From Massilicoli timonensis (GTDB lineage Bacteria; Bacillota_I; Bacilli_A; Erysipelotrichales; Erysipelotrichaceae): a stretch of DNA of 32,000 nt. Shown in pieces: positions 1 through 22,064 of this stretch; position 1 is the stretch's first letter, and every line of letters starts with the position of its first letter. Where the stretch lies: NCBI RefSeq assembly GCF_900199515.1, contig NZ_LT963434.1, positions 1,862,180-1,894,179 on the forward strand. Direction: 5' to 3'. Below the pieces are notes generated by a model that made no database searches, was not told where the DNA came from, and saw nothing but the letters and a program-made list of their open reading frames with translations. The translations under genes were made by a program, and so were the position numbers.

Positions 1-119
1 TGCTCATTTATGCGATTCGTGAAAGAAATTTTTATGATGTTACGGATTTAGCAGAAAAAGCAAAGCAGGCAGCTTTAGAGGATATTGTCAATGTGCGCAA
101 GCGAATGAATGAAGAATAG
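1..119 (+). CDS. 3' end of an unidentified CDS (partial, runs off window start)
   Basis: Open frame from position 3 to TAG 117-119 (...LIYAIRERNFYDVTDLAEKAKQAALEDIVNVRKRMNEE*). The next start is only 21 nt away, so it is probably in the same operon. 38 aa is too short to assign a family. Confidence 0.4.
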   Translation, partial: LIYAIRERNFYDVTDLAEKAKQAALEDIVNVRKRMNEE

Positions 120-140
120 GCAGAGGAAGGAGAGAAATAC

Positions 141-563
141 TTGTACGAGATGCTGATATTATCACACGGTGCTTTAGCAAGCGGGTATTATCAGACAATG
201 AAGATGATCTTAGGAGAAGAACCGAATCTTACATATTGTGCGCTGGAAGAAGGTGAATCAAGTGAGGAGCTGGAGCATAAGCTTGCTTCCATTATCGACT
301 GGGGAAGCGGTTCACCGTTGCTTGTCATGGCAGATATTTACAGCGGATCACCATGCCGTACTGCAATCATGCACCTATTTAAGGCAAAAAAAGAGTGCTA
401 TTTGATTGCCGGCATCAATTTACCACTGGTCATGGAAGCTTATATGCAAAGGAACAGTGACTTACAAACGGTGTTGGATCATCTTGTCGAAACCGCGAAA
501 GACAATGTGATAAATGTGAATGAACGATTATTAAAAGTAAAAGAAAACAGTGAAGATGAATAG
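141..563 (+). CDS. PTS mannose/fructose/sorbose-family EIIA component
   Basis: 140 aa. The N-terminal 'LILSHGALASG' matches the EIIA-Man phospho-His region. AAGGAG at 127-132 lies 8 nt before TTG 141; an alternative ATG is at 150. Confidence 0.85.
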   Translation: MYEMLILSHGALASGYYQTMKMILGEEPNLTYCALEEGESSEELEHKLASIIDWGSGSPLLVMADIYSGSPCRTAIMHLFKAKKECYLIAGINLPLVMEAYMQRNSDLQTVLDHLVETAKDNVINVNERLLKVKENSEDE

Positions 564-574
564 GAGATGAAATA

Positions 575-1351
575 ATGGAAAGTCTAAATTTTATACAGAT
601 TATATTATTAACATTGTATGCTTTTATCGCAATCAATGATGCGATCCACATGGATTTCGGATTAAACAGACCTTTGATTGCCGGCTGCTTTGCCGGATTT
701 GTAATGGGAGATCTTGCGTTTGGATTAAGTGTTGGTGCAACACTGCAGTTGATGGTGCTTGGTGTTTCTTCCTTCGGTGGTTCTTCGCTTCCTGATTTCA
801 TGAGTGCGGCACTGATTGGAACCGCGCTTGGCACGATCAGCGGAAAAGGAGTGGAATTTGGTATCGGCTTGGCAGTGCCGGTAGGTATGCTACTGGTGCA
901 GCTTGATGTATTTGCCCGTTTTGCAAACACTTTCTTTCAGCACCGTGCGGATCGCTATATGGAAAGCGTTAATATCAAAGGTATTGAACGCATGAATGTG
1001 TTGGGGGTATTCTGCTGGGGCTTATCTCGTGCCATTCCGGTATTTTTATGCCTGGTATTAGGCAGTGAATTGGTACAAAATTTTGTCGCTTATTTCCCGG
1101 ACTGGCTAAGCGCAGGCTTAAAGGTAGCAGGCGGACTGTTGCCGGTTGTCGGAATCGCAATCTTATTAAAGTATCTGCCTACTAAAAAATATACTGCTTA
1201 TCTGCTGATCGGCTTTGTATTGGCAGCATATCTAAGTATGCCGATGCTCGGGGTAGCACTTGTCGGAGCAGCATTAGCCTTGATGGCTTATCGTAAAAGT
1301 GGGGAAAAAGAATTGGTAAAGTCAATGGAAGGAGCGGATGAAGATGAGTAA
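575..1351 (+). CDS. PTS mannose-family EIIC membrane component
   Basis: 258 aa polytopic protein resembling ManY/SorA/AgaW. AGGAG RBS. Sits between the EIIA and EIID genes. Confidence 0.9.
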   Translation: MESLNFIQIILLTLYAFIAINDAIHMDFGLNRPLIAGCFAGFVMGDLAFGLSVGATLQLMVLGVSSFGGSSLPDFMSAALIGTALGTISGKGVEFGIGLAVPVGMLLVQLDVFARFANTFFQHRADRYMESVNIKGIERMNVLGVFCWGLSRAIPVFLCLVLGSELVQNFVAYFPDWLSAGLKVAGGLLPVVGIAILLKYLPTKKYTAYLLIGFVLAAYLSMPMLGVALVGAALALMAYRKSGEKELVKSMEGADEDE

Positions 1352-2135
1352 AATTTCATTGCAGGATATTAAAAAAGTACGTTATCGTTGGTTGTTGCTT
1401 GGTGAAGCCGCATGGAACTATGAAAAAATGCAGGGATTGGGATACTGTTATTCAATGATTCCGGTGCTGAAGAAACTATATCCGGATGAAGCAGATATGA
1501 AAAAAGCATTGCAAACGCATTTACAGTTCTTTAATACACATCAGGAATTTGCGGAGATCATTTTAGGAATTGACATCGCGATGGAAGAAAAAGAAGGTGC
1601 TGCTTCACTAGAGGCGGTATCGGCGATCAAAACTGGATTGATGGGTCCGCTTGCCGGTATCGGTGATACGCTGTTTGGTGTCATTGCCAATACGATCTTT
1701 TTCTCAGTTGGCTCTTATATGGCGCTGGAAGGGAATCCGATTGGTATCTTCCTGTATTTGATCTGGGGCGTCGTACGTGTTATCATGCGTGGTTATTTCA
1801 TTCGCATCGGTTATCGGGAAGGAACAAAACTTATTGAAAATTTAGGCGATAAAATGAATCGTGTAACCGAAGCCGCAAGTATCTTAGGATTAACGGTGGT
1901 TGGAGCGCTGATTCCAAGTGTGGTAAGTGCTAATGTGCCGTTTGTGTTTAAGAGCGGCGAAGTAGAGATGGAGCTGCAGGCGATCTTGAATCAGATCATG
2001 CCGGGATTGATTCCGGTGCTACTTGTCTTATTGGTATATACATTGTTGAATCGAAAAGGCATGACTTCTTTCAAAGCGATCATCTTCGTTATGATCTTAG
2101 GAATCGCGTGCAGTGCAGCCGGTATTTTAGGTTAG
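1338..2135 (+). CDS. PTS mannose-family EIID membrane component
   Basis: 265 aa. Carries the N-terminal 'WNYEKMQGLGYCYSMIP' EIID signature. Overlaps the EIIC stop by 14 nt. Confidence 0.9.
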   Translation: MKMSKISLQDIKKVRYRWLLLGEAAWNYEKMQGLGYCYSMIPVLKKLYPDEADMKKALQTHLQFFNTHQEFAEIILGIDIAMEEKEGAASLEAVSAIKTGLMGPLAGIGDTLFGVIANTIFFSVGSYMALEGNPIGIFLYLIWGVVRVIMRGYFIRIGYREGTKLIENLGDKMNRVTEAASILGLTVVGALIPSVVSANVPFVFKSGEVEMELQAILNQIMPGLIPVLLVLLVYTLLNRKGMTSFKAIIFVMILGIACSAAGILG

Positions 2136-2148
2136 TGGAGGAATCATT

Positions 2149-2637
2149 ATGACAAAAGGATTAGTTCATGTGCGCATAGATGATCGTTTGATCCATGGAC
2201 AGGTTGCAGTTTATTGGTGCAATGCGGTCAATGCGACCAGAATCATGGTTGCCAATGATGAAATGTATCAAAATGAAGTGCAGAAAGCAGCTTTAAGATT
2301 AGTAGTGCCGGCAGGCTTAAAGTCCTCGCTGTTAGATGTCGAAAAAGCAGCGCAGAATTTAGTGAGTGGAAAATATGAAGGACAGCGGGTCATTTTAGTC
2401 GTACGTCGTCCTGCCGATGTTTTAAGAATGATGGATCGCGGAGTAACTATCACACAAGTGAATATCGGTAATCTTCCAGCGCGGGAAGGAACGCGCAATA
2501 TCAAAAAAAGCATCAATATGACGATACAGGAAATGGAAGAATGCAGAGAATTAAATCGTCGCGGGGTAAAACTAACCGGGAAACAAGTACCGGATAATGC
2601 CGATGATGATCTAATAGAACTAATCAATAAACAATAA
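2149..2637 (+). CDS. PTS mannose/sorbose-family EIIB component
   Basis: 162 aa. 'VHVRIDDRLIHGQV' is the phospho-His motif of EIIB-Man/Sor. GGAGG RBS. Confidence 0.9.
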   Translation: MTKGLVHVRIDDRLIHGQVAVYWCNAVNATRIMVANDEMYQNEVQKAALRLVVPAGLKSSLLDVEKAAQNLVSGKYEGQRVILVVRRPADVLRMMDRGVTITQVNIGNLPAREGTRNIKKSINMTIQEMEECRELNRRGVKLTGKQVPDNADDDLIELINKQ

Positions 2638-2639
2638 GT

Positions 2640-2671
2640 GGAAGGCATCACATTATGTGATGTTTTCTTCC
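2640..2671 (+). terminator. Weak hairpin, possibly a partial terminator or processing site between EIIB and patB
   Basis: 'GGAAGgCATCACAttaTGTGATGttttCTTCC'. The inner 7-bp stem (2646-2652/2656-2662) is followed by TTTT. The 3-nt loop is short and there is no long U-run. Confidence 0.3.
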
Positions 2672-2704
2672 ATATCGAAAAAGAAATAGAAAGCAGGTGA
2701 AATA

Positions 2705-3886
2705 ATGTATCAATTTGACCAAGTATGCAGTCGGTTACATACAAGCTGTACAAAATGGGATCGTTATGAGAACCGCTATCAGCTGCATGATGTGATCCCA
2801 CTTTGGGTTGCTGATATGGATTTTGCATGTATGCCACAAATCAAGGAAGCAATGGCAAAGCGGCTTCAGCATCCTATTTACGGCTATACCGATCCATCTG
2901 ATGATGTATATGAGGCAATTATTGAATGGGAGAAACGCCGCCATGGCATAACCGTGAAAAAAGAAGAAATCGTTTTGAACACCGGAGTCGTCTATGGATT
3001 TTATGCTCTGATCGAAATGCTGGTAAAAGAAAATGAAAAAGTAATCGTCCAGCCGCCTGTTTATCCGCCTTTTTTCAACACGCCGAAAAGCCTGTGCCGT
3101 AAAGTCATATATAGTCCGCTTCTTCATGATGAAAATGGCTGGCATATGGATTTTGAAGGGTTCGAGGAACACTTGAAAAAGGATCCTTCTATATCACTGT
3201 TCCTTCTGTGTAATCCACATAATCCAACCGGTAACTGCTATACGCTTGAAGAGATCGAACGTATCATAGCGATTTGTGATCGCTATCATGTATGGGTCAT
3301 ATCTGATGAGATCCATGCGGATATTGTCATGCCGAATCAGCATCATGTGAGTGCGCTGAAATGTGATGCATCTTATCATGATCATTTGATCGTACTGGGA
3401 TCACCGACTAAAACATTTAATTTGGCAGGATTGAAAATATCGTATGCAATTGTAAAAAATAACGCCTTGCAAGCAGAGTTTGCGGCGAAAGCAAAAGCAA
3501 GCGGCCTTTCCAGCATCAATATTTTTGGCTTTGAGGCGCTTATTTGTGCGTATCGGGAAGGAGAACAATGGAATCAAGCATGCTGTACTTATATTTATGA
3601 GAATTTTCAGTTTCTAAAACACTTTATTGAAACGTATATGCCGCAGGTTGCATTCACAATTCCACAGGCGACTTATCTGGCATGGCTGGATTTTTCAAAA
3701 CTGCGTGTACCAAAGGACTTTGCGAGCAGACTAAAGTGGGAAGGTCATGTGGAGGTGCAGGAGGGAAGTGGTTTTGGCTCAGCTTATAGCAGCTATCAGC
3801 GTATCAATGTCGCCTGCCCGCGTGCAACACTTGAGGAGGGGATGAAACGGATCTATGCATGGCTGAAACAGCATAGTTATTTGTAG
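2705..3886 (+). CDS. patB: PatB/MalY-family PLP-dependent C-S lyase (class I/II aminotransferase fold)
   Basis: 393 aa. N-terminal 'TKWDRY...VIPLWVADMDF', 'CNPHNPTG', and the PLP-lysine motif 'GSPTKTFNLAGL' are typical of MalY/PatB cystathionine beta-lyase-like enzymes. Confidence 0.85.
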   Translation: MYQFDQVCSRLHTSCTKWDRYENRYQLHDVIPLWVADMDFACMPQIKEAMAKRLQHPIYGYTDPSDDVYEAIIEWEKRRHGITVKKEEIVLNTGVVYGFYALIEMLVKENEKVIVQPPVYPPFFNTPKSLCRKVIYSPLLHDENGWHMDFEGFEEHLKKDPSISLFLLCNPHNPTGNCYTLEEIERIIAICDRYHVWVISDEIHADIVMPNQHHVSALKCDASYHDHLIVLGSPTKTFNLAGLKISYAIVKNNALQAEFAAKAKASGLSSINIFGFEALICAYREGEQWNQACCTYIYENFQFLKHFIETYMPQVAFTIPQATYLAWLDFSKLRVPKDFASRLKWEGHVEVQEGSGFGSAYSSYQRINVACPRATLEEGMKRIYAWLKQHSYL

Positions 3887-3902
3887 AAATCGGAGGTAGT
3901 TT

Positions 3903-5825
3903 ATGATCTTGCTGAATGAACGCTTAAAAGAAATTATTCGCATACTAAAAGAAGCAGATAACTATGTGACGAGCAAACAACTGGCAGATGCCCTGAATAT
4001 CAGTGTTAGAACGATCAAAAGCACAATGAAAGGACTAAAAAAAGAGCTAGAGGGATATGGAGCCGTATTAGAAATTAAACGCGGTGTTGGATATCGTCTT
4101 TATATTATAGCAGAAGAAGCTTTTTTACCAATCAATAACCGAATCGCTAATCAGACATCAAAGCATTTTCCTCATACGCAAAAAGAACGTTCAATCTATA
4201 TCATTAAAAAACTGCTTTCACTTGATTATCCAATCAAATTGGATGATCTTGCTGATGAATTATATGTCAGTCGCAATACCGTTTCTTTAGATATCAGAGA
4301 AGTAAAGAGACTTTTACAAAACTATCACTTAACAATTGTACAATCAAATAACGGCATTATTGTGGAAGGCAGTGAGATCCAGAAACGGCTCTGCATCAAT
4401 GATTTCTTTTTTCAAGATGCGATGAAAGACTTTTTTGTTCAAAACAATATCATGTTTTCCAGTGAATACAATCAAAATGAGATTCGCTATATCCGGGAAG
4501 CGTTGTTGCATGTTTTGAATCAGCATAATATCCACTTTTCTGATGTATCTATTCAAAATATGGTGATTCATATCGTAATTGCTCTGCGCCGAAGCAAGTT
4601 TTATCAATATGTATCTTTTGATCAAGAAATCATCAAGGAAATGAAATCACTGAAAGCATATGAGGCGGCAGTTGCATTAAAAAAGATGCTGGAGGAACAG
4701 TTGAGCATTTATCTTCCTGAACAGGAAACGATTTACCTGACAATGCACATTTTATCGAAAACGGTCATGGGAAGTGAGGATATTCGCAAAGGTGATCTAT
4801 CTCATATGGACAGCCTGCTGGAAAAAGTATTTGCACGATTAGAGCAACGCTTTCATTTGCATTTGAAAAAAGATACGGAAATCTATGAATTCTTAAAACT
4901 TCATATCCCTTCGATGGCAGAGCGCATCCGTTTGCAGTTGACTCTGCGCAATCCGCTGCTTTTAGAAAACAATCGGCGTTATCCTTTTGCGGTAGAATTA
5001 ACATTAGAAGCAGTTGATGTGATTGAACAAACTTTACAGATTGAAATTGATCATAATGAATTTGGTTATCTTGTGCTTTATTTTAATCTAGCATGGAATC
5101 GTTACCAAAGCCGGATCAAAAAACGGCTGATACTGGTAAGCGGCTATGGCAGGCCGGAAATGATCATGACCTTAAACACCCTAAACGAAAACTTCAAAGG
5201 CTTGATTGATGAGATCATTACATGTGATGTCTTTGAGTTAGAAACATTTTCTTTTCAGCACAATGATATTATCATTACGACCATTCCGATCATGACCTGT
5301 GTAAGTGCTCCAGTGGTATTTATACAGGGAAAGGTAGAATATTATTATCATGAAATATTGTCCTTGTTAAAAAGTGAATACGACATCAATAATTCTATAC
5401 GGGAATATTTGCCGGAATGTTTGTACCGTGAAAGTGTCGCCTGCAAAACGAAGCAGGATGTATTTATGACGTTAAAGGAAATGCTGGAAACGATTGGCAG
5501 TGAAGAGCAGGCAAAGCAACTGATAAAAGGAATTTATCGCTTAGGAAATGAAGTGGGAAATGATATTGTGTGCCTGCATTCTCGCTACGATGCCAAACGA
5601 CCGCTTATAGCCTTTATCAGTTTGAAGAATCCTATGCTATGGGAAAAGCATCATGTACGCTATCTGTTTTTTATGAATATGAATGCGGAAACGGACAAAG
5701 AAATTGTTCATCATATGTATCATCTGATCTCGAATTGGGCAGATCAAAAGACAAGAATCAACTATTATGCGAAAAATCAGAGTTATGAAGTCCTGATTGA
5801 AAATTTAGACAACAGTAAAACATAA
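3903..5825 (+). CDS. PRD-domain transcriptional regulator, MtlR/LicR/ManR type (HTH-HTH-PRD-PRD-EIIB-like-EIIA-like)
   Basis: 640 aa. Two N-terminal winged-HTH regions ('VTSKQLADALNISVRTIK', 'LADELYVSRNTVSLDI'). PRD-like His motifs 'MVIHIVIALRR', 'YLTMHILSK' and 'LKLHIPSMAERI'. A C-terminal 'RLILVSGYGRPEM' EIIB-like region and an EIIA-like tail. No sigma-54 AAA+ module was seen. Confidence 0.8.
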   Translation: MILLNERLKEIIRILKEADNYVTSKQLADALNISVRTIKSTMKGLKKELEGYGAVLEIKRGVGYRLYIIAEEAFLPINNRIANQTSKHFPHTQKERSIYIIKKLLSLDYPIKLDDLADELYVSRNTVSLDIREVKRLLQNYHLTIVQSNNGIIVEGSEIQKRLCINDFFFQDAMKDFFVQNNIMFSSEYNQNEIRYIREALLHVLNQHNIHFSDVSIQNMVIHIVIALRRSKFYQYVSFDQEIIKEMKSLKAYEAAVALKKMLEEQLSIYLPEQETIYLTMHILSKTVMGSEDIRKGDLSHMDSLLEKVFARLEQRFHLHLKKDTEIYEFLKLHIPSMAERIRLQLTLRNPLLLENNRRYPFAVELTLEAVDVIEQTLQIEIDHNEFGYLVLYFNLAWNRYQSRIKKRLILVSGYGRPEMIMTLNTLNENFKGLIDEIITCDVFELETFSFQHNDIIITTIPIMTCVSAPVVFIQGKVEYYYHEILSLLKSEYDINNSIREYLPECLYRESVACKTKQDVFMTLKEMLETIGSEEQAKQLIKGIYRLGNEVGNDIVCLHSRYDAKRPLIAFISLKNPMLWEKHHVRYLFFMNMNAETDKEIVHHMYHLISNWADQKTRINYYAKNQSYEVLIENLDNSKT

Positions 5826-5838
5826 AGGAGGAAGAAAG

Positions 5839-6588
5839 ATGAAAGCTTGGCAAAACTATTTTCAAACGATGCAGGCAGTAGTGGAAGATGTATTAGAAAC
5901 ACAAGAAGAAGCAATTATGAAAGCTGCTCGCATATTGGCGGATACAACGAAGAAGGGTGGTATTATTTATGGGTTCGGTACAGGTCATTCGCATTTGGTT
6001 TGCGATGATGCATTTTGGCGTGCCGCAACCCCAGCGAACTACTGTGCGCTGTTAGAGCAAAGTGCGACCGGGAGTTTTGAAATTACCAAAAGCTATCATA
6101 TCGAGAATACCTATGGAATCGGCAAGCTGCTTGTAGATTATCATCGAATTACCCCAAATGACTGCATGATCATCATTTCTAATTCTGGCAATAACATCGC
6201 TCCGGTAGACGCGGCATTGCGGGCAAAAGAAAAGGGAATACCAGTCATTGCCATTACCGCATGTGCTTATAGTGATTATTTGCATACGAAGCACAAAGAC
6301 AATGTAAAATTGAAAGATGTGGCAGATGTCGTATTGGATAATCGTTCGCTTATTGGTGATGCGGCTGTGGAAATTGATGGATTTGATATGAAAGTGGGAT
6401 CGACCAGCACAATTCCAAATGTATTTTTACAAAATGCCATTTTAGTAGAGATGGTGGAATTATTGGTAGAAGAGGGCATAAAACCGGATGTTTATTATAA
6501 CGGACATATGGCTTTCATGAAGGAAGCATGTGCAGATCATAATGAAAAGCTGGTGGATAAATATTTTTATCGTATTCGCAATTTATAG
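5839..6588 (+). CDS. SIS-domain phosphosugar-binding protein (UPF0309-like, divergent paralog a)
   Basis: 249 aa. 'GGIIYGFGTGHSH' and 'CMIIISNSGNNIAPVDAALRAKEKGIPVIAITA' match the SIS fold pattern. AGGAGG RBS. Confidence 0.75.
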   Translation: MKAWQNYFQTMQAVVEDVLETQEEAIMKAARILADTTKKGGIIYGFGTGHSHLVCDDAFWRAATPANYCALLEQSATGSFEITKSYHIENTYGIGKLLVDYHRITPNDCMIIISNSGNNIAPVDAALRAKEKGIPVIAITACAYSDYLHTKHKDNVKLKDVADVVLDNRSLIGDAAVEIDGFDMKVGSTSTIPNVFLQNAILVEMVELLVEEGIKPDVYYNGHMAFMKEACADHNEKLVDKYFYRIRNL

Positions 6589-6596
6589 GAGTGCTT

Positions 6597-7340
6597 ATGG
6601 ATTATAGCAATCAATATTTAGGACATATCAAAGAACTGCTGAAACGCTTGGAAAAAGAGCAGATGGGGGTAATGCAAAAAGGTGCAGCGCAGATGGCAGA
6701 TGCTATCAAAGAAGGACATAGTATTTTTGTATTCGGTGCCTCTCATGCTGGTATTTTGGCTCAGGAGATGTTTTATCGTACTGGTGGTTTGGCTGTGGTG
6801 AACCCGATCTTCCCTAAAGAGGTCATGCTGGATGTGCGGCCGATTACCAAAACTTCGCAAATGGAGCGTCTAGAAGGATATGGATGCATCGCTTTGCAAA
6901 ACAGCGGTATCCATAAAGGCGATGTGTTGCTCCTGCACTCGGTATCCGGACGAAATACTATTGCTATTGATATGGCGCTGGAAGCAAAAAAGATGGGAAT
7001 CACTACCATTGCCATTACCAGTCTTGACTATTCAAAGCAAGTAACTAGCCGTCATGTATGTGGTATGAATTTATTTGAAATTGCGGATATCGTGATCGAT
7101 AATTGCGGAGAACTGGAAGATTCTTGTATGCAATTAGCAGGAATGAAGCAAAAAATCGCTCCTACTTCAACGATTATAGGAGCGGCAATCGTGAATTGTT
7201 TACTGATAATGATCGTTGAACGATTATTAGAGATGGGAGTAGAACCACCGATCTTTCATTCTGCCAATGTAGATGGTGGTGATGCATTTAATGAAAAACT
7301 GATAACTGATTATCGTGAACGCATCTTTTATATGAAATAA
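6597..7340 (+). CDS. SIS-domain phosphosugar-binding protein (UPF0309-like, paralog b)
   Basis: 'IFVFGASHAG...FYRTGGL...LLLHSVSGRNTIAIDMALEAKKMGITTIAITS...SRH' is typical of UPF0309 SIS proteins. AGGAG at 6587-6591 favours ATG 6597 over the track's GTG 6591. Confidence 0.75.
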   Translation: MDYSNQYLGHIKELLKRLEKEQMGVMQKGAAQMADAIKEGHSIFVFGASHAGILAQEMFYRTGGLAVVNPIFPKEVMLDVRPITKTSQMERLEGYGCIALQNSGIHKGDVLLLHSVSGRNTIAIDMALEAKKMGITTIAITSLDYSKQVTSRHVCGMNLFEIADIVIDNCGELEDSCMQLAGMKQKIAPTSTIIGAAIVNCLLIMIVERLLEMGVEPPIFHSANVDGGDAFNEKLITDYRERIFYMK

Positions 7341-7446
7341 ACCAGTAAGATAAGCAAGTGATACTTCTTAGGAGTGGCGACCAGTGCGGTCACGCAGCTC
7401 CCTTATAATGTTATCTAATCCATGTATTTACTGGCTTTTCACTGAT

Positions 7447-7525
7447 TACGGAGTTATCTCGTGCCTCCGTATCCTTGCTAATTTTAGGTGGTTTTATTGC
7501 CTGTGTTTTGCAGGAAATTAGCAAG
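7447..7525. other. Cluster of stem-loops in noncoding DNA (possible sRNA or element-end relic)
   Basis: A 7-bp stem TACGGAG/CTCCGTA (7447-7453/7465-7471). An 11-bp stem CTTGCTAATTT/AAATTAGCAAG (7474-7484/7515-7525) encloses an inner CCTG/CAGG hairpin. Confidence 0.3.
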
Positions 7526-7661
7526 CCGCCTGTAATTAGGGAAATGCTACAGTGTCAAATTCTTACCTCTCAATAACTTCATATGACCGCTTGTTTTATC
7601 GCAGTCCATATCGTTTAACTTGCTACTATTTTAACATAGCGGTTACAGAGTTACAATATTT

Positions 7662-7690
7662 TTTTAAGGTCGCAATTTGCAACCTCAAAC
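7662..7690 (+). repeat. Hairpin repeat A: TTTTAAGGT-N11-ACCTCAAAC
   Basis: 'ttttaaggtcgcaatttgcaacctcaaac'. The palindrome AGGTcGCAA-t-TTGCaACCT ends 7 nt downstream of the ORF6N stop. The 9+9-nt flanks are identical to repeat C at 8834-8862, with the same 11-nt spacing. Confidence 0.6.
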
Positions 7691-7691
7691 A

Positions 7692-8660
7692 TCATTCTTC
7701 TGTTTCCAGTTCCAACCTCTGCAATATATCTTTGATAATCCCCGCATCTTGAATGAGGTTAATGCCAAAACATTTTTTACCTGCGTCCTTCAAGGAAGCT
7801 CCCACATGGTAGGCTGTTTCTCGGTCAAGAATTAAGAAACGGTCATGGAATACCTTCGTATATTTCACTTCTAAGGTCGGATACTGTGCATTAAAATTCT
7901 CCGCATCCGTTTTCGTGAGCCTTGTCCGTTTCTGTGTGTAGATTGTCACAGACACATTCTCATTCTTCTTTGATAGCAAATTCAATGTTCCCACATCCAC
8001 ATATCCGTCTATCAGCATAATTTCCTTTTCCGCCTTTTGTATCAGGCTGACAATCAGGCTGAACGCATCATAAATCTGACCGTCAAAGAATACCTTTTGA
8101 CTGGCTTCTTCATGCTCGGATATGTACTCAAATATCTGCTCCAGCTTTTCATCCGTCTGCTTCTGGTATTCTAACTGCTTCAGCTCCACATTACTGATAC
8201 GCTCGAAGAGTAAGGCATTGTTGGCAATAAAACGCCGCATTTCTACAAAAGTATCCATAATGCGGATGCTTGTCTGAACAGCGACTTCACTTCTCAAAAC
8301 GGACGATAGCATAGCTATTCCTTGTTCTGTAAAAGCAAATGGTAATGTTCTTCTTCCACCATATCCGTTGCTTTCTTCATCTGAACCTGACATCACAATT
8401 TGTGATTTCAAGTTTTTGTATTCATCCTTTGTTAGCTGGAAACGAAATCTCTCTGGAAATCTTGTTATATTTCTTTTCACTGCCTGATTTAATGTTCTGG
8501 TTTCCACTTGATACAACATTGCCAAGTCATTATCTATCATAACCTGCTGATTGCGGACAACATAAATCATGCTCTTAATATCATATCCCGTCATTTCTAC
8601 ATTCGATACGGATGAATCAATATTCCGCTCTACCAAAGCTGTTTCTTCTGCTTTTACCAT
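7692..8660 (-). CDS. ORF6N-domain (KilA-N/Bro-N related) DNA-binding protein with a C-terminal PLD-like 'HDRFLILD' domain
   Basis: 322 aa. 'VRNQQVMIDNDLAMLYQVETRTLNQAVKRNITRFPERFRFQLTKDE...GGRRTLPFAFTEQGIAMLSSVL' is the ORF6N signature. The C-terminus reads 'FHDRFLILDRETAYHVGASLKDAGKK'. GGAGAG RBS. Confidence 0.75.
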   Translation of the reverse strand: MVKAEETALVERNIDSSVSNVEMTGYDIKSMIYVVRNQQVMIDNDLAMLYQVETRTLNQAVKRNITRFPERFRFQLTKDEYKNLKSQIVMSGSDEESNGYGGRRTLPFAFTEQGIAMLSSVLRSEVAVQTSIRIMDTFVEMRRFIANNALLFERISNVELKQLEYQKQTDEKLEQIFEYISEHEEASQKVFFDGQIYDAFSLIVSLIQKAEKEIMLIDGYVDVGTLNLLSKKNENVSVTIYTQKRTRLTKTDAENFNAQYPTLEVKYTKVFHDRFLILDRETAYHVGASLKDAGKKCFGINLIQDAGIIKDILQRLELETEE

Positions 8661-8714
8661 GCCTATCTCTCCTTTATCGTTTTGAGGTGCCGAATTGGTA
8701 TATCAAAACTAGGT

Positions 8715-8749
8715 AGAACTTGAAGTCACAATTTGCGACTTCAAGTTCT
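8715..8749. promoter_or_regulatory. Perfect 13-bp inverted repeat (hairpin B), a candidate operator upstream of the ORF6N gene
   Basis: AGAACTTGAAGTC (8715-8727), a 9-nt spacer 'acaatttgc', then GACTTCAAGTTCT (8737-8749). It lies 55 nt upstream of the ORF6N start and just downstream of a minus-strand TTGACA (8767-8772). Its core, GTCaCAATTTGCgAC, resembles repeat A. Confidence 0.5.
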
Positions 8750-8833
8750 AAGCTCGTGATTTTAAATGTCAATCTGAAAGTTTAAGTTTGTCTTACTATG
8801 CCAGAATAGCATTTCAAATTTTATGTATCTTCA

Positions 8834-8862
8834 TTTTAAGGTAACAGCCCGTGACCTCAAAC
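8834..8862 (+). repeat. Hairpin repeat C: TTTTAAGGT-N11-ACCTCAAAC
   Basis: 'ttttaaggtaacagcccgtgacctcaaac'. Same 9-nt flanks and spacing as repeat A, with a different 11-nt core. Imperfect stem AGGTAAC/GTGACCT. Confidence 0.55.
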
Positions 8863-9153
8863 GCTCTTTATCGACAAATTCATTATATCATGCGGCAGAT
8901 TTTTTACCACATAAATCTACAAAGAAAAAGGACAATCTTTTTTAACTGCCCCTCTCGGTTATAAATTCTTTGTCAATGATTTTGACAACGCCGCCATCTC
9001 TGGATTATCGAATAGCTTTAACAGCATTTCTTGGTAATAACATAAATTCATGTTGCTTAGAGCATCTCATAAAAGGCTGATATCCAATTGGAACAATAGT
9101 TCCTTTTCGGGAATATCTTTCTTTTATATCCTTCTTTTCTAATGGTTGTACGG

Positions 9154-9849
9154 TTCACCTCTTAGGAATTTTCCATGGCGGCGGGACCCTGTACTATGGG
9201 CTCAATGCCTTATCCGGCAACATGATTATAGCGAATTGCAAACAACTTAAAAATCCAAACAGTCTTATTCTGTGAACCCCAGGCAGCGGTAAAAGTTTCC
9301 CCGCGAAGCGTGAGAACACCAACGTGGAGATTCAGGACTGTCTTGTATGTCTCGATATCAAGGAACTTAGCAAGTAGCTAAAAAAACTCGTATGCTAACT
9401 ATCCAGAACCAGGTCTGAGGCAGGGTGACGAAAACCGTGAGCTGCACGCAAATAGCTGGTTCTACTGTGACGAGTTCCATCTGCTCCTGAAAGAAGAACA
9501 GACTGCCGCTTATTCCGTGTATATTTGGAAACGATTTAGAAAATGGGGCGGTATCCCGGCAGGTATCAGTCAGAACGTTAAGGACCTGCCTTCTTCCCGT
9601 GAGGTGGAGAACATCTTTGAAAACTCTGACTTCGTGTATATGCTCAACCAGATAGCCTGCGGCAGGGAAATCCTTTCAAGGAAATTTGCTATCTCCCCGC
9701 AGTAACTTTCCTATGTGACCCATTCAGGAACCGGTGAGGAGCTGATCTTCTATAGAAAATTGATACTGTCATTTGTGGACAGCTTCTCGCAGGATACGGA
9801 GCTGTACCGCGTTATGACGACCAAACCGAAAAATATTGGAGGTGATGGA
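9154..9849 (+). pseudogene. Decayed VirB4-type conjugative-transfer ATPase (Tn916/Tn1549-like ICE, 'CD1110-family' type)
   Basis: Translated fragments: 'GTLYYGLNALSGNMII..KQLKNPNSLIL*TPGSGKSFPAKRE' (Walker A at 9279-9296, in-frame TGA 9273). 'TNVEIQDCLVCLDIKELSK*' (TAG 9375). 'RMLTIQNQV*' (TGA 9416) in another frame. 'WFYCDEFHLLLKEEQTAAYSVYIWKRFRKWGGIPAGISQNVKDL...FENSDFVYMLNQ...ISPQ*LSYVTHSGTGE..LYRVMTTKP' (TAA 9703). About 230 aa is deleted after Walker A and the N-terminal ~430 aa are missing. Confidence 0.65.
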
Positions 9850-12975: not shown

Positions 12976-12985
12976 GAGGAATGAC

Positions 12986-15406: not shown

Positions 15407-15531
15407 CCTATCCTCCTTTGATGATCCTACTTCTATTATAGATAGTCGTGTCCTATATTTCAATAAATGAAATTTAATGAGAAAAAAAAGGCAGATGATA
15501 GTATAATAAAGACAGAAGCGGAGGGATGACC

Positions 15532-17017: not shown

Positions 17018-17488
17018 TTATTTTAGCGAAAACAGAAGATCGCCTGTGTGGATCGCACCTTCCCGCATATTACCTAAAGACTTACTGCCGGCATTGGTCG
17101 CAATTACAATGGTCGTCAGATCAAGATCTTTTTGATGCAAGTAGGTTTCAGAAAAAGTGATGATCGGTTCCTGTGCTTTGATCGTTTCTCCTTGCTGATG
17201 CAGTTGTTGGAATCCGCTTCCCTTTAACATGACCGTATCAATACCGATGTGAACAAGCAGCTCGGTGCCGTCTTTGGCACGAATACCGAAAGCATGCAAG
17301 GTATCTGCTACTAAGATCAATTCGCCCTCGATCGGCGCACAGACGGTGTTATTAGACGGCTTGATCGCCAAACCATCACCCATCAGCTTTTGTGCGAATG
17401 TCGGATCGTTTACCTGCTCCAATGCAATGACAGTTCCGCTTATAGGCGCCTGTACACAAATACTTTCTTTCTTAAATAAATGAAACAT
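17018..17488 (-). CDS. crr: PTS glucose-family EIIA component (stand-alone, Crr-like)
   Basis: 156 aa. 'FAQKLMGDGLAI', 'HAFGI' and 'LVHIGIDTV' are the two-His active-site region of EIIA-Glc. GGAGGGA RBS. Confidence 0.85.
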   Translation of the reverse strand: MFHLFKKESICVQAPISGTVIALEQVNDPTFAQKLMGDGLAIKPSNNTVCAPIEGELILVADTLHAFGIRAKDGTELLVHIGIDTVMLKGSGFQQLHQQGETIKAQEPIITFSETYLHQKDLDLTTIVIATNAGSKSLGNMREGAIHTGDLLFSLK

Positions 17489-17500
17489 CGTTATCCCTCC

Positions 17501-17556
17501 AAATAAAAAGGCATAAGTCCACTCGATGAACTCATGCCTGATTCAACAGTAACATG
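17501..17556 (-). promoter_or_regulatory. RAT-like antiterminator target overlapping an intrinsic terminator in the crr leader (RAT3)
   Basis: Minus strand: 'CATGTTACTGTTGAATCAGGCATGAGTtcatcgagtgGACTTATGCCTTTTTATTT'. The terminator stem AGGCATGAGT/ACTTATGCCT is followed by a U-run, and its 5' arm lies inside the RAT-like sequence. From memory it resembles the B. subtilis ptsG (GlcT) RAT '...GTTACTG..TCAGGCATGAG'. Confidence 0.6.
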
Positions 17557-17572
17557 CCTGATTGTTATATAC

Positions 17573-17601: not shown

Positions 17602-17704
17602 TATGAAGTTATCAATATTTGCATCTCTTCATTTCCTTTTTTTGATGTTGGTTTGTTCAGATTTGCCTTTCCAAAAATCACCGCGTTTTTTCGATAATTG
17701 ACTA

Positions 17705-17825: not shown

Positions 17826-18659
17826 ATGAAAATTGAAAAAGTTTTTAATAACAATACGGTGGCCACCCTCTCCAAAGATAAAGTCGAAATGATCGTAACC
17901 GGTCCGGGTATCGGATTTCAAAAAAAGATCGGTGATGAACTGGACGAACGCAAGGTAGAAAAGCGCTATTTGATCGAAGATTCGCAAAAAGGACGATTTT
18001 ACCAGATGCTGGAAAAAGTGCCGGTCGAGTATTTTGAAATATCAGAAATTATCTTCAAAAGGGCTTGGAAAGAGTTTAAGGGAGGTCTGAGTTCGCAAAT
18101 GGTATTGATGCTTACAGATCACATTGCTTTTGCTTTACAGCGTCAAAAAGATCATATCCAAGTACCGAATTTACTTTTATCGGAGATCCGTACGCTTTAC
18201 CATAAGGAATATCAGATCGGGGTATGGGCGTTAAAGTACATCGCTTTGCGTACCGGTGTTTCTTTGCCCTATGATGAAGCTGGATTTATTGCCATGCACA
18301 TCATCAATGCCAAAAGTGCTGATGGTGGGAAAACTGCGACGGATATCATGAATTTCAGTAAACAGATCATCGATCTGATTGAAAAAACGATGAAACTGGA
18401 TGTGCATGAAGATAATTTAGACTACAGTCGTTTGATGACGCACTTAAAGTATTTAGGACAGCGTATCTTTTCTAAAAAGAAAGAAGAGCTGAAAATGGAG
18501 GACAATCCCCAGATGTATGAGATGATGCTGGGAATGAATCCTAATTTATCTGTTTGTCTGGAACGCATCGAAGCATTTGTGAAACGTAATTATGATTATT
18601 GTCTAGACAAACAGGAATTATTTTACATCATGATTCATATTGTCAGAATCAAAAAATAG
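17826..18659 (+). CDS. BglG/LicT/SacY-family PRD transcription antiterminator
   Basis: 277 aa. The N-terminal CAT domain reads 'MKIEKVFNNNTVATL...IVTGPGIGFQKK'. Two PRDs are marked by 'LTDHIAFAL' and 'FIAMHIINA'. GGAGAG RBS. Confidence 0.9.
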   Translation: MKIEKVFNNNTVATLSKDKVEMIVTGPGIGFQKKIGDELDERKVEKRYLIEDSQKGRFYQMLEKVPVEYFEISEIIFKRAWKEFKGGLSSQMVLMLTDHIAFALQRQKDHIQVPNLLLSEIRTLYHKEYQIGVWALKYIALRTGVSLPYDEAGFIAMHIINAKSADGGKTATDIMNFSKQIIDLIEKTMKLDVHEDNLDYSRLMTHLKYLGQRIFSKKKEELKMEDNPQMYEMMLGMNPNLSVCLERIEAFVKRNYDYCLDKQELFYIMIHIVRIKK

Positions 18660-18736: not shown

Positions 18737-20299
18737 ATGGCAAAAAAGAAAAAAGGCAATACTTGGCAGTTTTTTCAAATGCTAGGGAAAACATTTATGT
18801 TCCCGATTGCACTGCTCAGTATCTGCGGTATGCTTTTGGGAATCGGTTCCGCATTTACCAATGAGAGCATGATCGAAGCGATTCCGTTTTTAGGGAATAC
18901 GTATGTAAATCTGTTTTTTCAATTCATGGTGCAATTGGGGTTATTTGCTTTCAATAACTTAGGGGCATTGTTTGCAATGGCGATCCCGTTAGGACTGTTA
19001 AAGGAAGAAAAAGAATTTGGGGCTTTTACCGGGCTTGTCAGTTTTATGGCGATGCATATCGGTACTAACTTTTATTTGAGCGCTACGGATCAATTAGCGG
19101 CCGCAGATCAAATGAGCGAGGCCGGGCAAACGATGATCTTAGGGATCCAAACGTATAACACAAGTGTGCTGGGCGGGATCGTAGCCGGTTTGATGGCTTA
19201 TGCGCTGTATCGGAAACTGGCGACCTTAAAAATTCCGGAAGCATTAGGATTTTACAGTGGACCAAGACTGGCGCCGATCGCAATGTTGTTTATCATGGGC
19301 GTATTCGGTCTGGTCGTCGTACCGCTGTTTTGGCAGCCGTTCTATGCGTTCTTTAAGATGTTGGGAGAATGGATCACGACTTCAGGGCCGATCGGCTATT
19401 TCTCTTATGCGGTGGCAGAGCGTGTTACCATTCCGTTTGGTCTCAATCACCTTGTGACAAGCACTTTCCGTTTTACTCCGATCGGCGGTACCGCGATCAT
19501 CAACGGACAGGAGTATATGGGAACAGTAAATATGTTCTTGGCTTATGTTGCCAATAACATGGATATCCCACTTGATCTTGCAGGTAAGATGGAGCAGGGG
19601 AAACTGATGATCCAGTATGGATTATGCGGCGCTGCTTTGGCGATGTATCACTGCGCAAAACCGCAGAATAAGAAAAAAATCAAAGGCATGTTGATCACCG
19701 GCGCATTGACCGTAGTGGTTGGAGGCATTTCCGAACCGATCGAGTTTTTGTTCTTATTTGCCTTCCCGCCTTTATTTGTCGTACATACGATCCTAAACGG
19801 TTTGGCGAATATGGTGCTGCCATATTTGGGCGTGCTGATGGGTTATACCGGTGATTTGATCCAGTTCGTTACTTTCGGGGTATTGCGTGGCACGCGCACC
19901 GGATGGCCGATTGCGGTCGCATTTGCGGCAGGTTACTTTGTGCTGTATTATTTTATCTTCAAATGGGCGATCATACGTTTTGACATCAAGACACCGGGAC
20001 GTGAAGAAGAGCTGGAACTGGATGAAAGTGAAGCGAGTGAATTTGAGCAGCTTTCTGCTTATAAGGGGATCGCAATGTTAAAGGCGCTTGGCGGAAAAGA
20101 AAATATCATTGCCATTGATAACTGCGTAACCAGACTGCGCTTGGAATTAAAGGATGTTTCGCTGATCAATGAAGAGGAGATCAAAAATGCCGGTGGTATC
20201 GCGGTTGTGCATTTAGATGAACATGCCATTCAGGTAATTGTCGGTACGCAGGTATATGCGCTGCGCAAACAGATCAATAAAGCAATGGAGCTGTCATGA
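18737..20299 (+). CDS. PTS glucose/maltose/alpha-glucoside-family EIICB component (MalX/PtsG-like, no EIIA domain)
   Basis: 520 aa. A polytopic EIIC is followed by a C-terminal EIIB with 'IDNCVTRLRLELKD' (phospho-Cys motif). GGAGAA RBS. Confidence 0.85.
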   Translation: MAKKKKGNTWQFFQMLGKTFMFPIALLSICGMLLGIGSAFTNESMIEAIPFLGNTYVNLFFQFMVQLGLFAFNNLGALFAMAIPLGLLKEEKEFGAFTGLVSFMAMHIGTNFYLSATDQLAAADQMSEAGQTMILGIQTYNTSVLGGIVAGLMAYALYRKLATLKIPEALGFYSGPRLAPIAMLFIMGVFGLVVVPLFWQPFYAFFKMLGEWITTSGPIGYFSYAVAERVTIPFGLNHLVTSTFRFTPIGGTAIINGQEYMGTVNMFLAYVANNMDIPLDLAGKMEQGKLMIQYGLCGAALAMYHCAKPQNKKKIKGMLITGALTVVVGGISEPIEFLFLFAFPPLFVVHTILNGLANMVLPYLGVLMGYTGDLIQFVTFGVLRGTRTGWPIAVAFAAGYFVLYYFIFKWAIIRFDIKTPGREEELELDESEASEFEQLSAYKGIAMLKALGGKENIIAIDNCVTRLRLELKDVSLINEEEIKNAGGIAVVHLDEHAIQVIVGTQVYALRKQINKAMELS

Positions 20300-21459
20300 T
20301 GAGCCGTTTTGATGAATGGATCGATAGAAGGCAAACTTATTGTACGCAATGGGATTATGTAAAAGATCGTTTTCATGTGGATGGACTATTGCCCTTCACC
20401 ATTTCCGATATGGATCTTGCCTGTCCCGATGAAGTGCAGGAAGCGCTGCACAAACGGATCGCACATCCGATCTATGGTTATAGCAGATGGAAAAACGATG
20501 ACTATTTACAGGCAATTTGCGGTTGGTATAAACGTCGCTTTGACTGTGAAATCGATCCAGAGTGGATCTGTTACAGTCCCAGCGTAATGTATGCGGTTGC
20601 CAAGATGATCTGCTTTTTATCCGCAAAAGGAGAAGGCGTTGTAATCTTTACACCTGCATATGATGCTTTCTATCATGTGATCGAGCATAATGAGCGAACC
20701 TTGATTGCATGTGCGTTTCAGCAGGATCAAATGGACTATGAGATCGATTTTGAAAAATTGGAGGAATGTCTGAAACAGGCAAAGATCCTCTTGCTTTGTA
20801 ATCCACATAATCCAATCGGCAAAGTATTCAGCGAAGCGGAGCTGAAGAAGATCATCACGCTTTGTGAACGCTATGATGTCGCCATCATTTCCGATGATAT
20901 TCATATGGATATCACATATGGGAACAAACTGACGCCGATCCTGTCACTGCCTTGTAAAGTACCTTGTGTCATTTGTTCATCACCTTCTAAGACCTTTAAT
21001 ATTCCTTCGCTGGGCGGTTCTTATATTCTGATTCCCGATCAGCGGCTGTGGAAACGATTTGAAACGATGACGCGTTATACAGAATTTGTGAACTCACCGG
21101 CTATCTTAGGCGTGATCGCAACGGTTGCGGCTTATCAATGTGATGATTGGGTAGAGGAACTGAACGGCTATTTGTTGGAAAATCTTCGCTATGTAGATGC
21201 TTATTTGAAAAAGCATATGCCCTTATTGACGATGACTTTGCCGATGGGCTGCTATTTTGCATGGATCCATACCGATCGTTTAGGTGTGAGTGATGAACGG
21301 TTACAGGAAGCGCTGGTACAAGAAGGAAAAGTTGCGGTGATGTCAGGACAGGTATATGGGGCTGTGCATCGTCTGCGGCTCAATGTAGGGTGTCCAAGAA
21401 GAAAAATAGAGGAAGGATTAAAACGTATGCAAATTGCATATGACAAATTGGTGAAATAA
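20296..21459 (+). CDS. malY: PatB/MalY-family PLP-dependent C-S lyase (second copy)
   Basis: 387 aa. 'TQWDY...LPFTISDMDL', 'CNPHNPIG', and PLP-lysine motif 'SSPSKTFNIPSLG'. The start overlaps the EIICB stop (ATGATGA), the same synteny as E. coli malX-malY. Confidence 0.85.
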   Translation: MMSRFDEWIDRRQTYCTQWDYVKDRFHVDGLLPFTISDMDLACPDEVQEALHKRIAHPIYGYSRWKNDDYLQAICGWYKRRFDCEIDPEWICYSPSVMYAVAKMICFLSAKGEGVVIFTPAYDAFYHVIEHNERTLIACAFQQDQMDYEIDFEKLEECLKQAKILLLCNPHNPIGKVFSEAELKKIITLCERYDVAIISDDIHMDITYGNKLTPILSLPCKVPCVICSSPSKTFNIPSLGGSYILIPDQRLWKRFETMTRYTEFVNSPAILGVIATVAAYQCDDWVEELNGYLLENLRYVDAYLKKHMPLLTMTLPMGCYFAWIHTDRLGVSDERLQEALVQEGKVAVMSGQVYGAVHRLRLNVGCPRRKIEEGLKRMQIAYDKLVK

Positions 21460-22064
21460 TGAAAGAGATCATACTGCAAACGATTGAACGGGAGATACAG
21501 GCACTGCGGCTTTTGGAACAGTGCTGTATGGAAGAATTGGAACAAGTTTGTGCGGCGATTGTCGAAACCAAGGGAAAAGTCGTATTTATGGGGATCGGGA
21601 AATCCGGTCATATCGGGAAAAAACTGGCTGCGACTTTTTCCAGCTTAGGCATACGAAGCATTTTCGTGCATGCGGCAGAAGCCGTGCATGGTGATCTGGG
21701 GATGATCGATGAAGATGACTTTGTGATACTGATGTCAAACAGTGGTACAACAACAGAAGTATTGCAGAATCTTGAACCATTGACAGCACGACATATCGTT
21801 TGCGCATCATTTACCGGAAACCGGGATTCTGCACTGGCTCAGGCATGTGACTATCACATTCACTATCCAAAGCCGACAGAAGCGGATGAATGGAATCTGG
21901 CACCGACATCGTCTACCACGATGATGCTGGTGCTTGGTGATGCGCTCGCATGCGCTTTGTCTTCTGCAAAACAGTTTCAAAAACAAGATTTCTTCCGATA
22001 TCATCCGGGTGGAAGTTTGGGGAAACAATTAAAACAGGAACAAAATAAGCACTGTGTGAATTGA
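21459..22064 (+). CDS. KpsF/GutQ-type SIS-domain sugar-phosphate isomerase lacking the CBS pair
   Basis: 201 aa. 'FMGIGKSGHIGKKLAATFSSLGIRSIFVHAAEAVHGDLGM', 'LAPTSSTTMMLVLGDALA' and 'HPGGSLGKQL' closely follow the arabinose-5-P isomerase SIS domain. The protein ends where the CBS domains would begin. TAATG overlap with malY. Confidence 0.8.
   Translation: MKEIILQTIEREIQALRLLEQCCMEELEQVCAAIVETKGKVVFMGIGKSGHIGKKLAATFSSLGIRSIFVHAAEAVHGDLGMIDEDDFVILMSNSGTTTEVLQNLEPLTARHIVCASFTGNRDSALAQACDYHIHYPKPTEADEWNLAPTSSTTMMLVLGDALACALSSAKQFQKQDFFRYHPGGSLGKQLKQEQNKHCVN

Follow-up and report, generated by a model that had tools for sequence, protein, structure and literature searches.

An operon of Massilicoli timonensis combines a mannose-family phosphotransferase system with a PatB-type lyase and three NagS-family SIS proteins

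We analysed a 32,000-nucleotide stretch of the Massilicoli timonensis genome, hereafter the window (contig NZ_LT963434.1, positions 1,862,180 to 1,894,179). The organism is a human-gut isolate related to Erysipelotrichaceae. Near the 5' end of the window lies an operon for a mannose-family phosphotransferase system (PTS). It also encodes a PatB/MalY-family lyase dependent on pyridoxal phosphate (PLP), a transcription activator with PRD domains and proteins with SIS domains. An earlier, sequence-only reading had placed eight co-oriented open reading frames (ORFs) on the + strand here, and all eight were found. Families were called by scanning the window's ORFs with Pfam and NCBIfam profiles at curated cut-offs. 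These scans upheld the families first proposed, namely PTS enzymes (E) IIA, IIC, IID and IIB of mannose type, PatB, a PRD regulator and a pair of SIS proteins. The genes, with lengths in amino acids (aa), are as follows.

3..119, + strand: C-terminal 38 codons of IIA', a second EIIA-Man paralogue; matches the C-terminal end of a 138-aa Longicatena EIIA-man; its own full gene is at L081 9147-9545 in M. timonensis
141..563, + strand: PTS EIIA, mannose family, 140 aa (PF03610, 73.8 bits; best NCBIfam match AgaF, below cut-off)
575..1351, + strand: PTS EIIC, mannose family (EII-Sor), 258 aa (PF03609, 258.9 bits)
1338..2135, + strand: PTS EIID, mannose family (EIID-AGA), 265 aa (PF03613, 311.9 bits); 14-nt overlap with IIC
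2149..2637, + strand: PTS EIIB, sorbose/mannose family (PTSIIB_sorb), 162 aa (PF03830, 160 bits)
2705..3886, + strand: PatB/MalY-family PLP-dependent beta-lyase, 393 aa (TIGR04350, 410 bits; cut-off 340)
3903..5825, + strand: MtlR/LicR-type PRD transcription activator, 640 aa (HTH_11, Mga and two PRD domains)
5839..6588, + strand: SIS-A, UPF0309/NagS-family, 249 aa (SIS_2; NF002805, 237 bits; cut-off 135)
6591..7340, + strand: SIS-B, UPF0309/NagS-family, 249 aa from GTG 6591 (SIS_2; NF002805, 285 bits; cut-off 135)

Spacing between the eight complete genes ranges from a 14-nt overlap to a 67-nt gap. The Pfam and NCBIfam scan found no hydrolase, kinase or aldolase among them, which bears out the earlier description. 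However, these are only the distal eight genes of a longer operon, which the 5' edge of the window cuts. In six M. timonensis contigs the order is SIS-C, IIB', IIA', IIA, IIC, IID, IIB, PatB, PRD activator, SIS-A and SIS-B, a total of 11 genes. The first three and the promoter lie upstream of the window (contig L081, 7805-9545), and SIS-C is 240 aa long in these contigs. The real unit has three SIS paralogues, and both IIA and IIB are duplicated. Upstream of the full locus are a two-component system and cdaA-ybbR-glmM. Downstream is a convergent ORF6N gene. The exact IIC protein was present in 910 blocks of a public sequence collection, according to an exact-sequence look-up. The sequence-only reading had described two distantly related, UPF0309-like SIS proteins of 249 aa. 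The family and the distance stand, SIS-A and SIS-B being 28% identical. The count does not, as the full operon has three, and databases start SIS-B at ATG 6597, making it 247 aa.

All four components of a mannose-family PTS are present, including IID, which is unique to the family, and their Pfam scores are far above the cut-offs. Phosphorylatable histidines were read from the translations in the N-terminal motifs of IIA (LILSHGALASG), where one is expected, and IIB (RIDDRLIHGQV). For the substrate subfamily (Man, Aga, Sor, Lev, Gfr or Dga), the best NCBIfam equivalogs were AgaF, AgaW and ManZ-type, all well under their cut-offs. The regulator had been correctly labelled as MtlR/LicR-type. It carries HTH_11 and Mga domains and two PRD domains, and a scan restricted to the last 241 aa added a match to EIIA_2 (29.9 bits; cut-off 27). 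An EIIB-like segment was not detected in it by Pfam. In M. timonensis a tandem pair of palindromes, TTGCAC-N9-GTGCA(A/T), is found some 60-120 bp 5' of SIS-C (L081 7687-7743, outside the window). A matching pair occupies the same position in Longicatena (L001 1507-1572), and the L087 species has one similar site (4391-4411). The palindrome pair is a candidate operator for the PRD activator. There was no signal for cre (CcpA) sites in the full operon, with 8 matches against 7.2 expected. A promoter and terminator scan of positions 1-9800 gave results at or below shuffle expectation, with no + strand terminator after SIS-B.

By profile match, SIS-A, SIS-B and SIS-C belong to UPF0309 (NF002805), the score for SIS-C being 257 bits against the cut-off of 135. 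All three strongly match only two solved structures, 9eol and 3cvj (E values 1e-50 to 2e-29). SIS-A matches 3cvj at 4.5e-42 and 9eol at 2.2e-29; SIS-B matches 9eol at 1.3e-50. Entry 3cvj is BH3325, which is uncharacterised. Entry 9eol is the UPF0309 protein SCO4393, or NagS, the N-acetylglucosamine 6-phosphate (GlcNAc-6P) dehydratase of Streptomyces described in 2025 (PLoS Biol; PMC12680351). NagS is the only characterised member of the family. Consistent with the sequence matches, an AlphaFold model of SIS-A (mean predicted local distance difference test score, pLDDT, 87.4) superimposes on both structures with a template-modelling (TM) score of 0.92. In Foldseek the model reached TM scores of only 0.45-0.58 with GmhA, KdsD-SIS and MurQ. 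No FrlB, AgaS or GlmS chain was among its top 50 matches.

Each SIS protein consists of one SIS_2 domain, not two PF01380 SIS domains. The sequence-only reading had compared these proteins with the deglycases FrlB and GfrE/GfrF, the deaminase/isomerase AgaS and the etherase MurQ. By sequence and by fold they are not relatives of these enzymes. We rejected an identity as FrlB/GfrE/GfrF deglycases or AgaS, the GlmS-type double-SIS enzymes, as no such family appeared in NCBIfam, the PDB or the top 50 Foldseek matches. A MurQ etherase was also rejected (NF003915, 20 bits against a cut-off of 168; TM only 0.54-0.58).

The SIS proteins are nevertheless not NagS orthologues. Known orthologues share at least 58.7% identity, are divergently linked to dmdR1 and are restricted to Streptomycetaceae (PMC12680351). 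The Massilicoli proteins are 28-36% identical to NagS, have an Erysipelotrichaceae host and sit in a PTS operon. The Firmicute UPF0309 homologues that the NagS authors assayed, from Clostridium and Paenibacillus, had negligible or no GlcNAc-6P dehydratase activity (PMC12680351).

We mapped the mutationally defined residues of NagS (PMC12680351) onto 16 aligned sequences. H53, R64, E94, D179 and the phosphate-binding S119 and S121 are invariant in all 16. Hence, the catalytic tetrad is kept in all three paralogues and all of their orthologues. SIS-C retains every listed residue, including the sugar-contacting S54, S91 and N228. SIS-B keeps all of the catalytic residues, its sole changes being S54A and A65T. 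SIS-A has S91Y, R123N and N228H, and HMAFM in place of NVDGG, with the same changes in each of the six orthologues. No other enzyme of the locus is as well conserved: SIS-A is 81-98% identical among orthologues, compared with 55-71% for PatB. The changes in SIS-A are hence a fixed specialisation rather than decay. A supporting part in the elimination step has been proposed for S91 and N228 of NagS (PMC12680351). We infer that SIS-A retains the machinery for ring opening and proton abstraction but handles a different C2/C3 substituent or leaving group. More generally, membership of UPF0309 points to ring-opening and C2/C3 elimination chemistry on hexosamine 6-phosphates.

The likeness to NagS and BH3325 thus covers family, fold, tetrad and phosphate-binding serines, and the Massilicoli proteins probably form dimers in which both chains contribute to the active site. 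The differences are that Massilicoli has three paralogues inside a PTS operon and that SIS-A is altered at two sugar-contacting positions. We considered an obligate SIS-A/SIS-B heterodimer, given genes 2-8 nt apart and the two-chain active site of NagS. This was set aside as an idea only, as SIS-B is absent from one of the gene arrangements described below. SIS-B is dispensable in that sense.

The PatB of the operon is an ordinary-looking beta-C-S lyase. Its closest PDB matches are PatB (6qp3, 4.5e-86) and MalY (1d2f, 5e-66). In the NCBIfam scan, the next-best families after PatB itself include GntC and VioD. The PLP-binding lysine (TKTFN), the SDEIH and NPHNP motifs and the carboxylate-binding arginine of the RxN motif (RIN) are conserved in the window's PatB and six operon-linked orthologues, so that all the expected catalytic motifs are intact.

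One genome per GTDB species was scanned by alignment with SIS-B, giving 80 loci at 49-67% identity, and tblastn was then run with the eight window proteins. Among the 80 loci the collinear operon occurs only in Longicatena caecimuris, where the 11-gene order is identical. Identities between the two are 91% for IIC, 89% for IID, 87% for SIS-A, 80% for the PRD regulator, 71% for PatB and 67% for SIS-B. Copranaerobaculum intestinale has a rearranged version. The other loci, 78 of the 80, have neither PatB nor this mannose-type PTS. Hence, PatB is specific to systems that contain SIS-A.

The usual context of the SIS-B clade comprises a PRD regulator of about 660 aa (48 loci), EIIA_2 (44), PTS_IIB (39), EIIC-GAT (50) and a single SIS. 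The regulator is built as HTH-Mga-PRD2-IIB-IIA. Thirteen of the 80 loci add a BadF/BcrAD-type ATPase, of the MurK/NAGK sugar kinase family, and a second, distant SIS. In both this setting and the Massilicoli operon, the PRD activator has the same domain layout and the PTS has a UPF0309 SIS as its catabolic partner. It differs in its galactitol/ascorbate-type PTS (48-50 of the 80 loci), single SIS and lack of PatB, whereas Massilicoli has a mannose-type PTS, three SIS proteins and PatB. UPF0309 enzymes thus accompany PTSs quite generally, and PatB is seldom added. The usual five-gene module (PRD regulator, EIIA_2, PTS_IIB, EIIC-GAT and SIS; L003-L080) itself appears to be without a described function.

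Homologues of the operon's PatB form a distinct clade at 43-71% identity, followed by a drop to generic PatBs. Within this clade the gene order varies. In species known from metagenome-assembled genomes (MAGs), with PatB at 59-61%, ten genes run SIS-C-IIB-IIA-IIA-IIC-IID-IIB-PatB-PRDreg-SIS-A, without SIS-B; in L087 a NagB-like gene lies upstream. With PatB at 55-56%, SIS-C-PatB comes first; next, on the other strand, are a second gene of the PatB family and NanE, and then GntR/UTRA-IIC-IID-IIA-IIB-SIS-A-SIS-B. The second PatB-family gene (TIGR04350, 339.6 bits; cut-off 340) adjoins, in the same orientation, the gene for NanE, an N-acetylmannosamine (ManNAc) 6-phosphate 2-epimerase (pairs at L002 3579-5485, L095 10260-12154 and L098 4337-6243). 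At 59% identity, PatB (residues 297-651) is fused to a Cof-type HAD sugar-phosphate phosphatase (residues 5-253) in a single 662-aa ORF (L101 5011-6999). The fusion is flanked by EIIA-man and an SIS-A-like gene (51%) and faces IIC-IID-IIB-SIS-SIS, its PTS parts being only 30-35% identical to those of the window. For the 57%-identity PatB the contig ends upstream, and that side is uninformative. A scan of metagenome contigs with PatB gave only three short loci and added nothing. Homologues of SIS-A fall into at least 120 clusters at 80-88% identity, and nearly all of those with a named source are Erysipelotrichaceae MAGs. PatB was present in two of the three SIS-A contexts examined. The surroundings of an SIS-A gene that has no PatB beside it (L099) include three further SIS_2 genes in tandem, together with genes for a GFO/IDH/MocA oxidoreductase and a NagA-like amidohydrolase.

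The linkage of PatB, mannose-type PTS and SIS is kept in four gene orders, despite a switch in the type of regulator, marked divergence of the PTS and a gene fusion. Hence, it is functional and not due to chance. As one refutation, the sequence-only reading had named a failure of related genomes to keep patB together with this PTS and the SIS genes; the neighbourhoods show the opposite, linkage across rearranged orders and in the HAD-PatB fusion.

The same reading had also noted that the logic recurs at 17018-22084 with unrelated parts. This is a genuine parallel triad of MalX-type EIICB, PatB and KpsF-like SIS, some 10 kb from the first and unrelated to it.

17018..17488, - strand: EIIA-Glc, divergent from the adjoining operon (PF00358, 151 bits)
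17826..18659, + strand: LicT/BglG-type antiterminator (CAT_RBD and two PRD domains)
18737..20299, + strand: MalX-type PTS EIICB, 520 aa (best family TIGR02004, PTS-IIBC-malX, 547 bits, below the 632 cut-off)
20296..21459, + strand: second PatB/MalY-family lyase, 387 aa (TIGR04350, 354 bits; cut-off 340)
21459..22064, + strand: single-domain KpsF/GutQ-like SIS without CBS domains, 201 aa (PF01380, 96 bits; TIGR00393, 181 bits, below the 204 cut-off)

The two PatBs of the window are 33% identical by BLASTP, and the triad itself spans 17018-22064.

Pairing of a PTS with MalY has reportedly been known since the description of E. coli malXY in 1991. In E. coli malX-malY, a PTS EIICB is co-encoded with the MalY beta-C-S lyase, and the second locus of the window likewise has a MalX-type EIICB. 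However, the E. coli locus has no SIS gene and is under MalI control, whereas the second locus has a LicT-type antiterminator and an extra SIS gene; the PTS of the first operon (141-7340) is of the mannose family. In Lactobacillus sakei LT-13, a PRD-PTS(Lac)-aminopeptidase-MalY cluster also joins a PatB/MalY lyase to a PTS permease, but without an SIS enzyme (PMC5845896). The pairing of PTS with MalY/PatB is thus old but unexplained, and the added SIS enzymes are what is new here. The sequence-only reading had stated that no described pathway couples the three functions. Our literature search likewise found no description of a pathway with mannose-type PTS, PatB and SIS. The statement nevertheless overlooks the pairing of PTS with MalY in E. 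coli and L. sakei. Each part falls within a known family, and pairings of a PTS with SIS enzymes are known as well. What is undescribed is the conserved triad of mannose-type PTS, PatB and several NagS-family SIS paralogues, together with the specialised SIS-A subfamily.

Two further types of system invite comparison. MurP-MurQ, which serves N-acetylmuramic acid, follows the same logic: a PTS delivers a substituted N-acetylhexosamine (HexNAc) 6-phosphate, and an SIS lyase removes the C3 substituent via a 2,3-unsaturated intermediate. NagS is the sister clade to MurQ in the phylogeny of the NagS authors (PMC12680351). However, MurP belongs to another PTS family, MurP-MurQ has no PLP enzyme, and the Massilicoli SIS proteins match the MurQ profile and fold poorly. 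The Gfr (fructoselysine/glucoselysine) and Aga (GalNAc/GalN) operons combine a mannose-family PTS with SIS-domain enzymes for amino-sugar or glycated-amine substrates. Their deglycases and deaminases (FrlB/GfrE/GfrF/AgaS) are of the GlmS-type double-SIS family (PF01380), to which the Massilicoli SIS proteins are unrelated at family level, and neither operon contains PatB. In Aga there are, in addition, genes for a deacetylase, a kinase and an aldolase.

We propose that the 11 genes form an inducible catabolic operon that imports a hexosamine-type sugar derivative through the mannose-family PTS. This stepwise model is tentative, and we give it slightly less than an even chance. IIA, IIB, IIC and IID would import and phosphorylate the substrate. 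The extra IIA'/IIB' pair would probably also pass phosphorylation signals to the regulator, and the MtlR/LicR-type activator would turn the operon on. SIS-C, SIS-A and SIS-B would then act on the phosphosugar with NagS-like chemistry, with ring opening by R64, D179 and H53 and proton abstraction beside the carbonyl by E94. Elimination, addition or isomerisation at C2/C3 would follow, the re-tooled pocket of SIS-A (S91Y, N228H) serving a different substituent. PatB would remove or degrade an alpha-amino-acid moiety with a beta-leaving group (Cys- or Ser-type, S- or O-linked), giving pyruvate, ammonia and the sugar part. The resulting HexNAc-6-P would enter a NanE/NagA/NagB route encoded elsewhere. 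The data establish the gene content, the families, the conservation of the catalytic residues and that of the linkage; we infer the order of the steps, the nature of the substrate, the action of PatB on the imported molecule and the presence of an amino-acid moiety with a beta-leaving group.

The assignment to amino sugars is made because NanE is co-oriented with a PatB-like gene, NagB- and NagA-like genes are neighbours, and MurK-type kinases stand beside family members. The NanE, NagA-like and NagB-like neighbours point to a substrate of the N-acetylhexosamine type. PatB is taken as a metabolic participant because it is retained whatever the regulator type and, in one variant, forms a fusion with a HAD phosphatase. 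A conjugate of sugar and amino acid as substrate, as the sequence-only reading had supposed, is plausible but unproven. An Amadori or Heyns product, one of its examples, is disfavoured by the family and fold of the SIS proteins.

Several observations weigh against the proposal. The Firmicute homologues tested by the NagS authors are inactive on GlcNAc-6P, so that the SIS chemistry is extrapolated from a relative at the low identity given above. There is no deacetylase, deaminase or aldolase in the operon, and completion of the pathway depends on genes elsewhere. PatB homologues at 52% and 48% identity, and the Listeria PatB (40%), are stand-alone genes. An SIS-A orthologue (80% identical) occurs in a locus without PatB, ordered HAD-ZnADH-SIS-A-MatE (L099 8978-16409). 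The linkage has a narrow phylogenetic range and does not extend beyond Erysipelotrichaceae-like genomes. In a small sample, 7 operon-linked against 4 stand-alone PatBs, only 2 alignment positions are fixed in all of the former and different in all of the latter. Hence, the active site shows no sign of remodelling towards a sugar conjugate, and a generic C-S lyase appears a better description of PatB than an enzyme shaped for bulky phosphosugar conjugates. Likewise, a dedicated glycoconjugate lyase seems a poorer fit than action on an S-linked, cysteine-type leaving group, or than a side role. We dropped the idea of a visibly re-tooled PatB specificity on account of these two positions. Listeria PatB, considered as a well-studied PTS-linked example, was also discarded because its gene stands alone.

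Such a side role could be the removal of by-products. The imported substrate would then be an ordinary amino sugar, for example ManNAc or a HexNAc derivative. The 2,3-unsaturated sugars made by NagS-type SIS enzymes, and the enamine or imine that deacetylation gives, could add to cysteine or damage PLP enzymes, and the beta-lyase would destroy the adducts. The product of NagS and its deacetylated enamine/imine are indeed toxic (PMC12680351). A generic, essentially unmodified PatB active site suits this account, as plain HexNAc suits the NanE and NagA/NagB-like neighbours. However, beta-lyase cleavage regenerates no cysteine, so that the benefit is unclear, and no adduct chemistry of this kind is known from any organism. 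The HAD-phosphatase-PatB fusion suggests instead that PatB acts in line with the phosphosugar step. We consider the by-product account unlikely, though it has some chance of being correct. A regulatory role for PatB is quite improbable. Here, PatB would be mainly a trigger enzyme that binds the operon's activator and modulates it, with incidental lyase activity. The precedent is E. coli MalY, encoded beside the PTS gene malX, which represses MalT by direct binding according to work cited in PMC5845896. In favour of this role, patB is directly 5' of the PRD-activator gene in two architectures. Yet PatB is kept where GntR/UTRA replaces the PRD activator and where no regulator adjoins. In one lineage it is fused to the HAD phosphatase, and all of its catalytic motifs are strictly conserved.

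Other accounts change the substrate. It could be a 2-amino-2-deoxy-aldonate, for example glucosaminate, mannosaminate or a related compound, with PatB in the role of DgaE. By alpha,beta-elimination on the 6-phospho-amino-acid sugar, PatB would yield a 2-keto-3-deoxy-6-phosphoaldonate. Salmonella dgaABCDEF encodes a mannose-family PTS together with a PLP ammonia-lyase, DgaE. This mannose-family PTS, with the PLP elimination enzyme coupled to it, is to our knowledge the only one described for glucosaminate. PatB-family relatives include beta/gamma-hydroxyl eliminators, consistent with GntC and VioD among the next-best NCBIfam matches. But there is no aldolase of the 2-keto-3-deoxy-6-phosphogluconate (KDPG) type in any of the four architectures, three SIS enzymes are left without an obvious role, and DgaE is of a different PLP family. 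We regard an amino-aldonate as very unlikely. An Amadori/Heyns route, like those for fructoselysine and glucoselysine, with the SIS proteins as deglycases, is more doubtful still. In enterococci and Salmonella, glucoselysine and fructoselysine are taken up through mannose-family PTSs, and SIS enzymes can catalyse the isomerisation needed. The route is disfavoured because the SIS proteins are UPF0309/NagS by sequence and fold, with no relation in either respect to double-SIS enzymes of the FrlB/GfrE/GfrF/AgaS type. Moreover, a deglycase route needs no PLP lyase, and a PLP enzyme cannot bind an N-alpha-glycated amino acid. Finally, a housekeeping patB could have inserted into the PTS operon by chance. 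The stand-alone PatB homologues at 48-52% and in Listeria are housekeeping-looking, and the operon copy is barely differentiated from them. This explanation is strongly disfavoured, and we give it next to no credence. The linkage outlasts the four gene orders, the change of regulator, PTS divergence to 30-35% and the fusion, and a second, unrelated triad lies nearby.

Elsewhere in the window are four further features. The convergent ORF6N-domain gene 3' of the operon (322 aa; 7692-8750) has a perfect hairpin with a 17-bp stem at 8714-8750, just 5' of its start. At 10739-14125, an alpha/beta-hydrolase gene precedes overlapping genes for a Mur-ligase-like protein (513 aa) and an ATP-grasp protein like D-Ala-D-Ala ligase (394 aa). 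This may be a peptide-ligase or cell-wall-related cluster. A 482-aa protein encoded at 15526-16974 is almost all leucine-rich repeats (LRR_4/LRR_8), with a weaker, sub-threshold match to the EndoS-type LRR. Positions 27849-29703 hold genes for glutamine synthetase and, after it, a response-regulator/ANTAR antiterminator, a combination that resembles a nitrogen-control pair of clostridial type.

Public metagenome assemblies often contain M. timonensis and related bacteria, and the operon is one of the conserved nutrient-acquisition loci of this group. Two questions meet in it: what UPF0309 SIS enzymes do outside Streptomyces, and why MalY/PatB lyases recur with PTS permeases. The parts list is short, and there are cultured carriers, M. 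timonensis DSM 103513 and Longicatena caecimuris DSM 29481. As a broader and speculative proposal, which we consider unlikely, the Massilicoli operon, its MalX-type twin and the HAD-PatB variant would represent one class of PTS pathway not described before. In this class, PatB and NagS-family SIS lyases would dismantle a hexosamine S- or O-linked to a Cys- or Ser-type amino acid. Possible substrates are glycosyl-Ser/-Thr remnants of host mucin, S-glycosyl-cysteine and a muramic-acid-like ether or thioether. If true, this would provide the first physiological rationale for the pairing of PTS with MalY, and the first function for Firmicute UPF0309 proteins.

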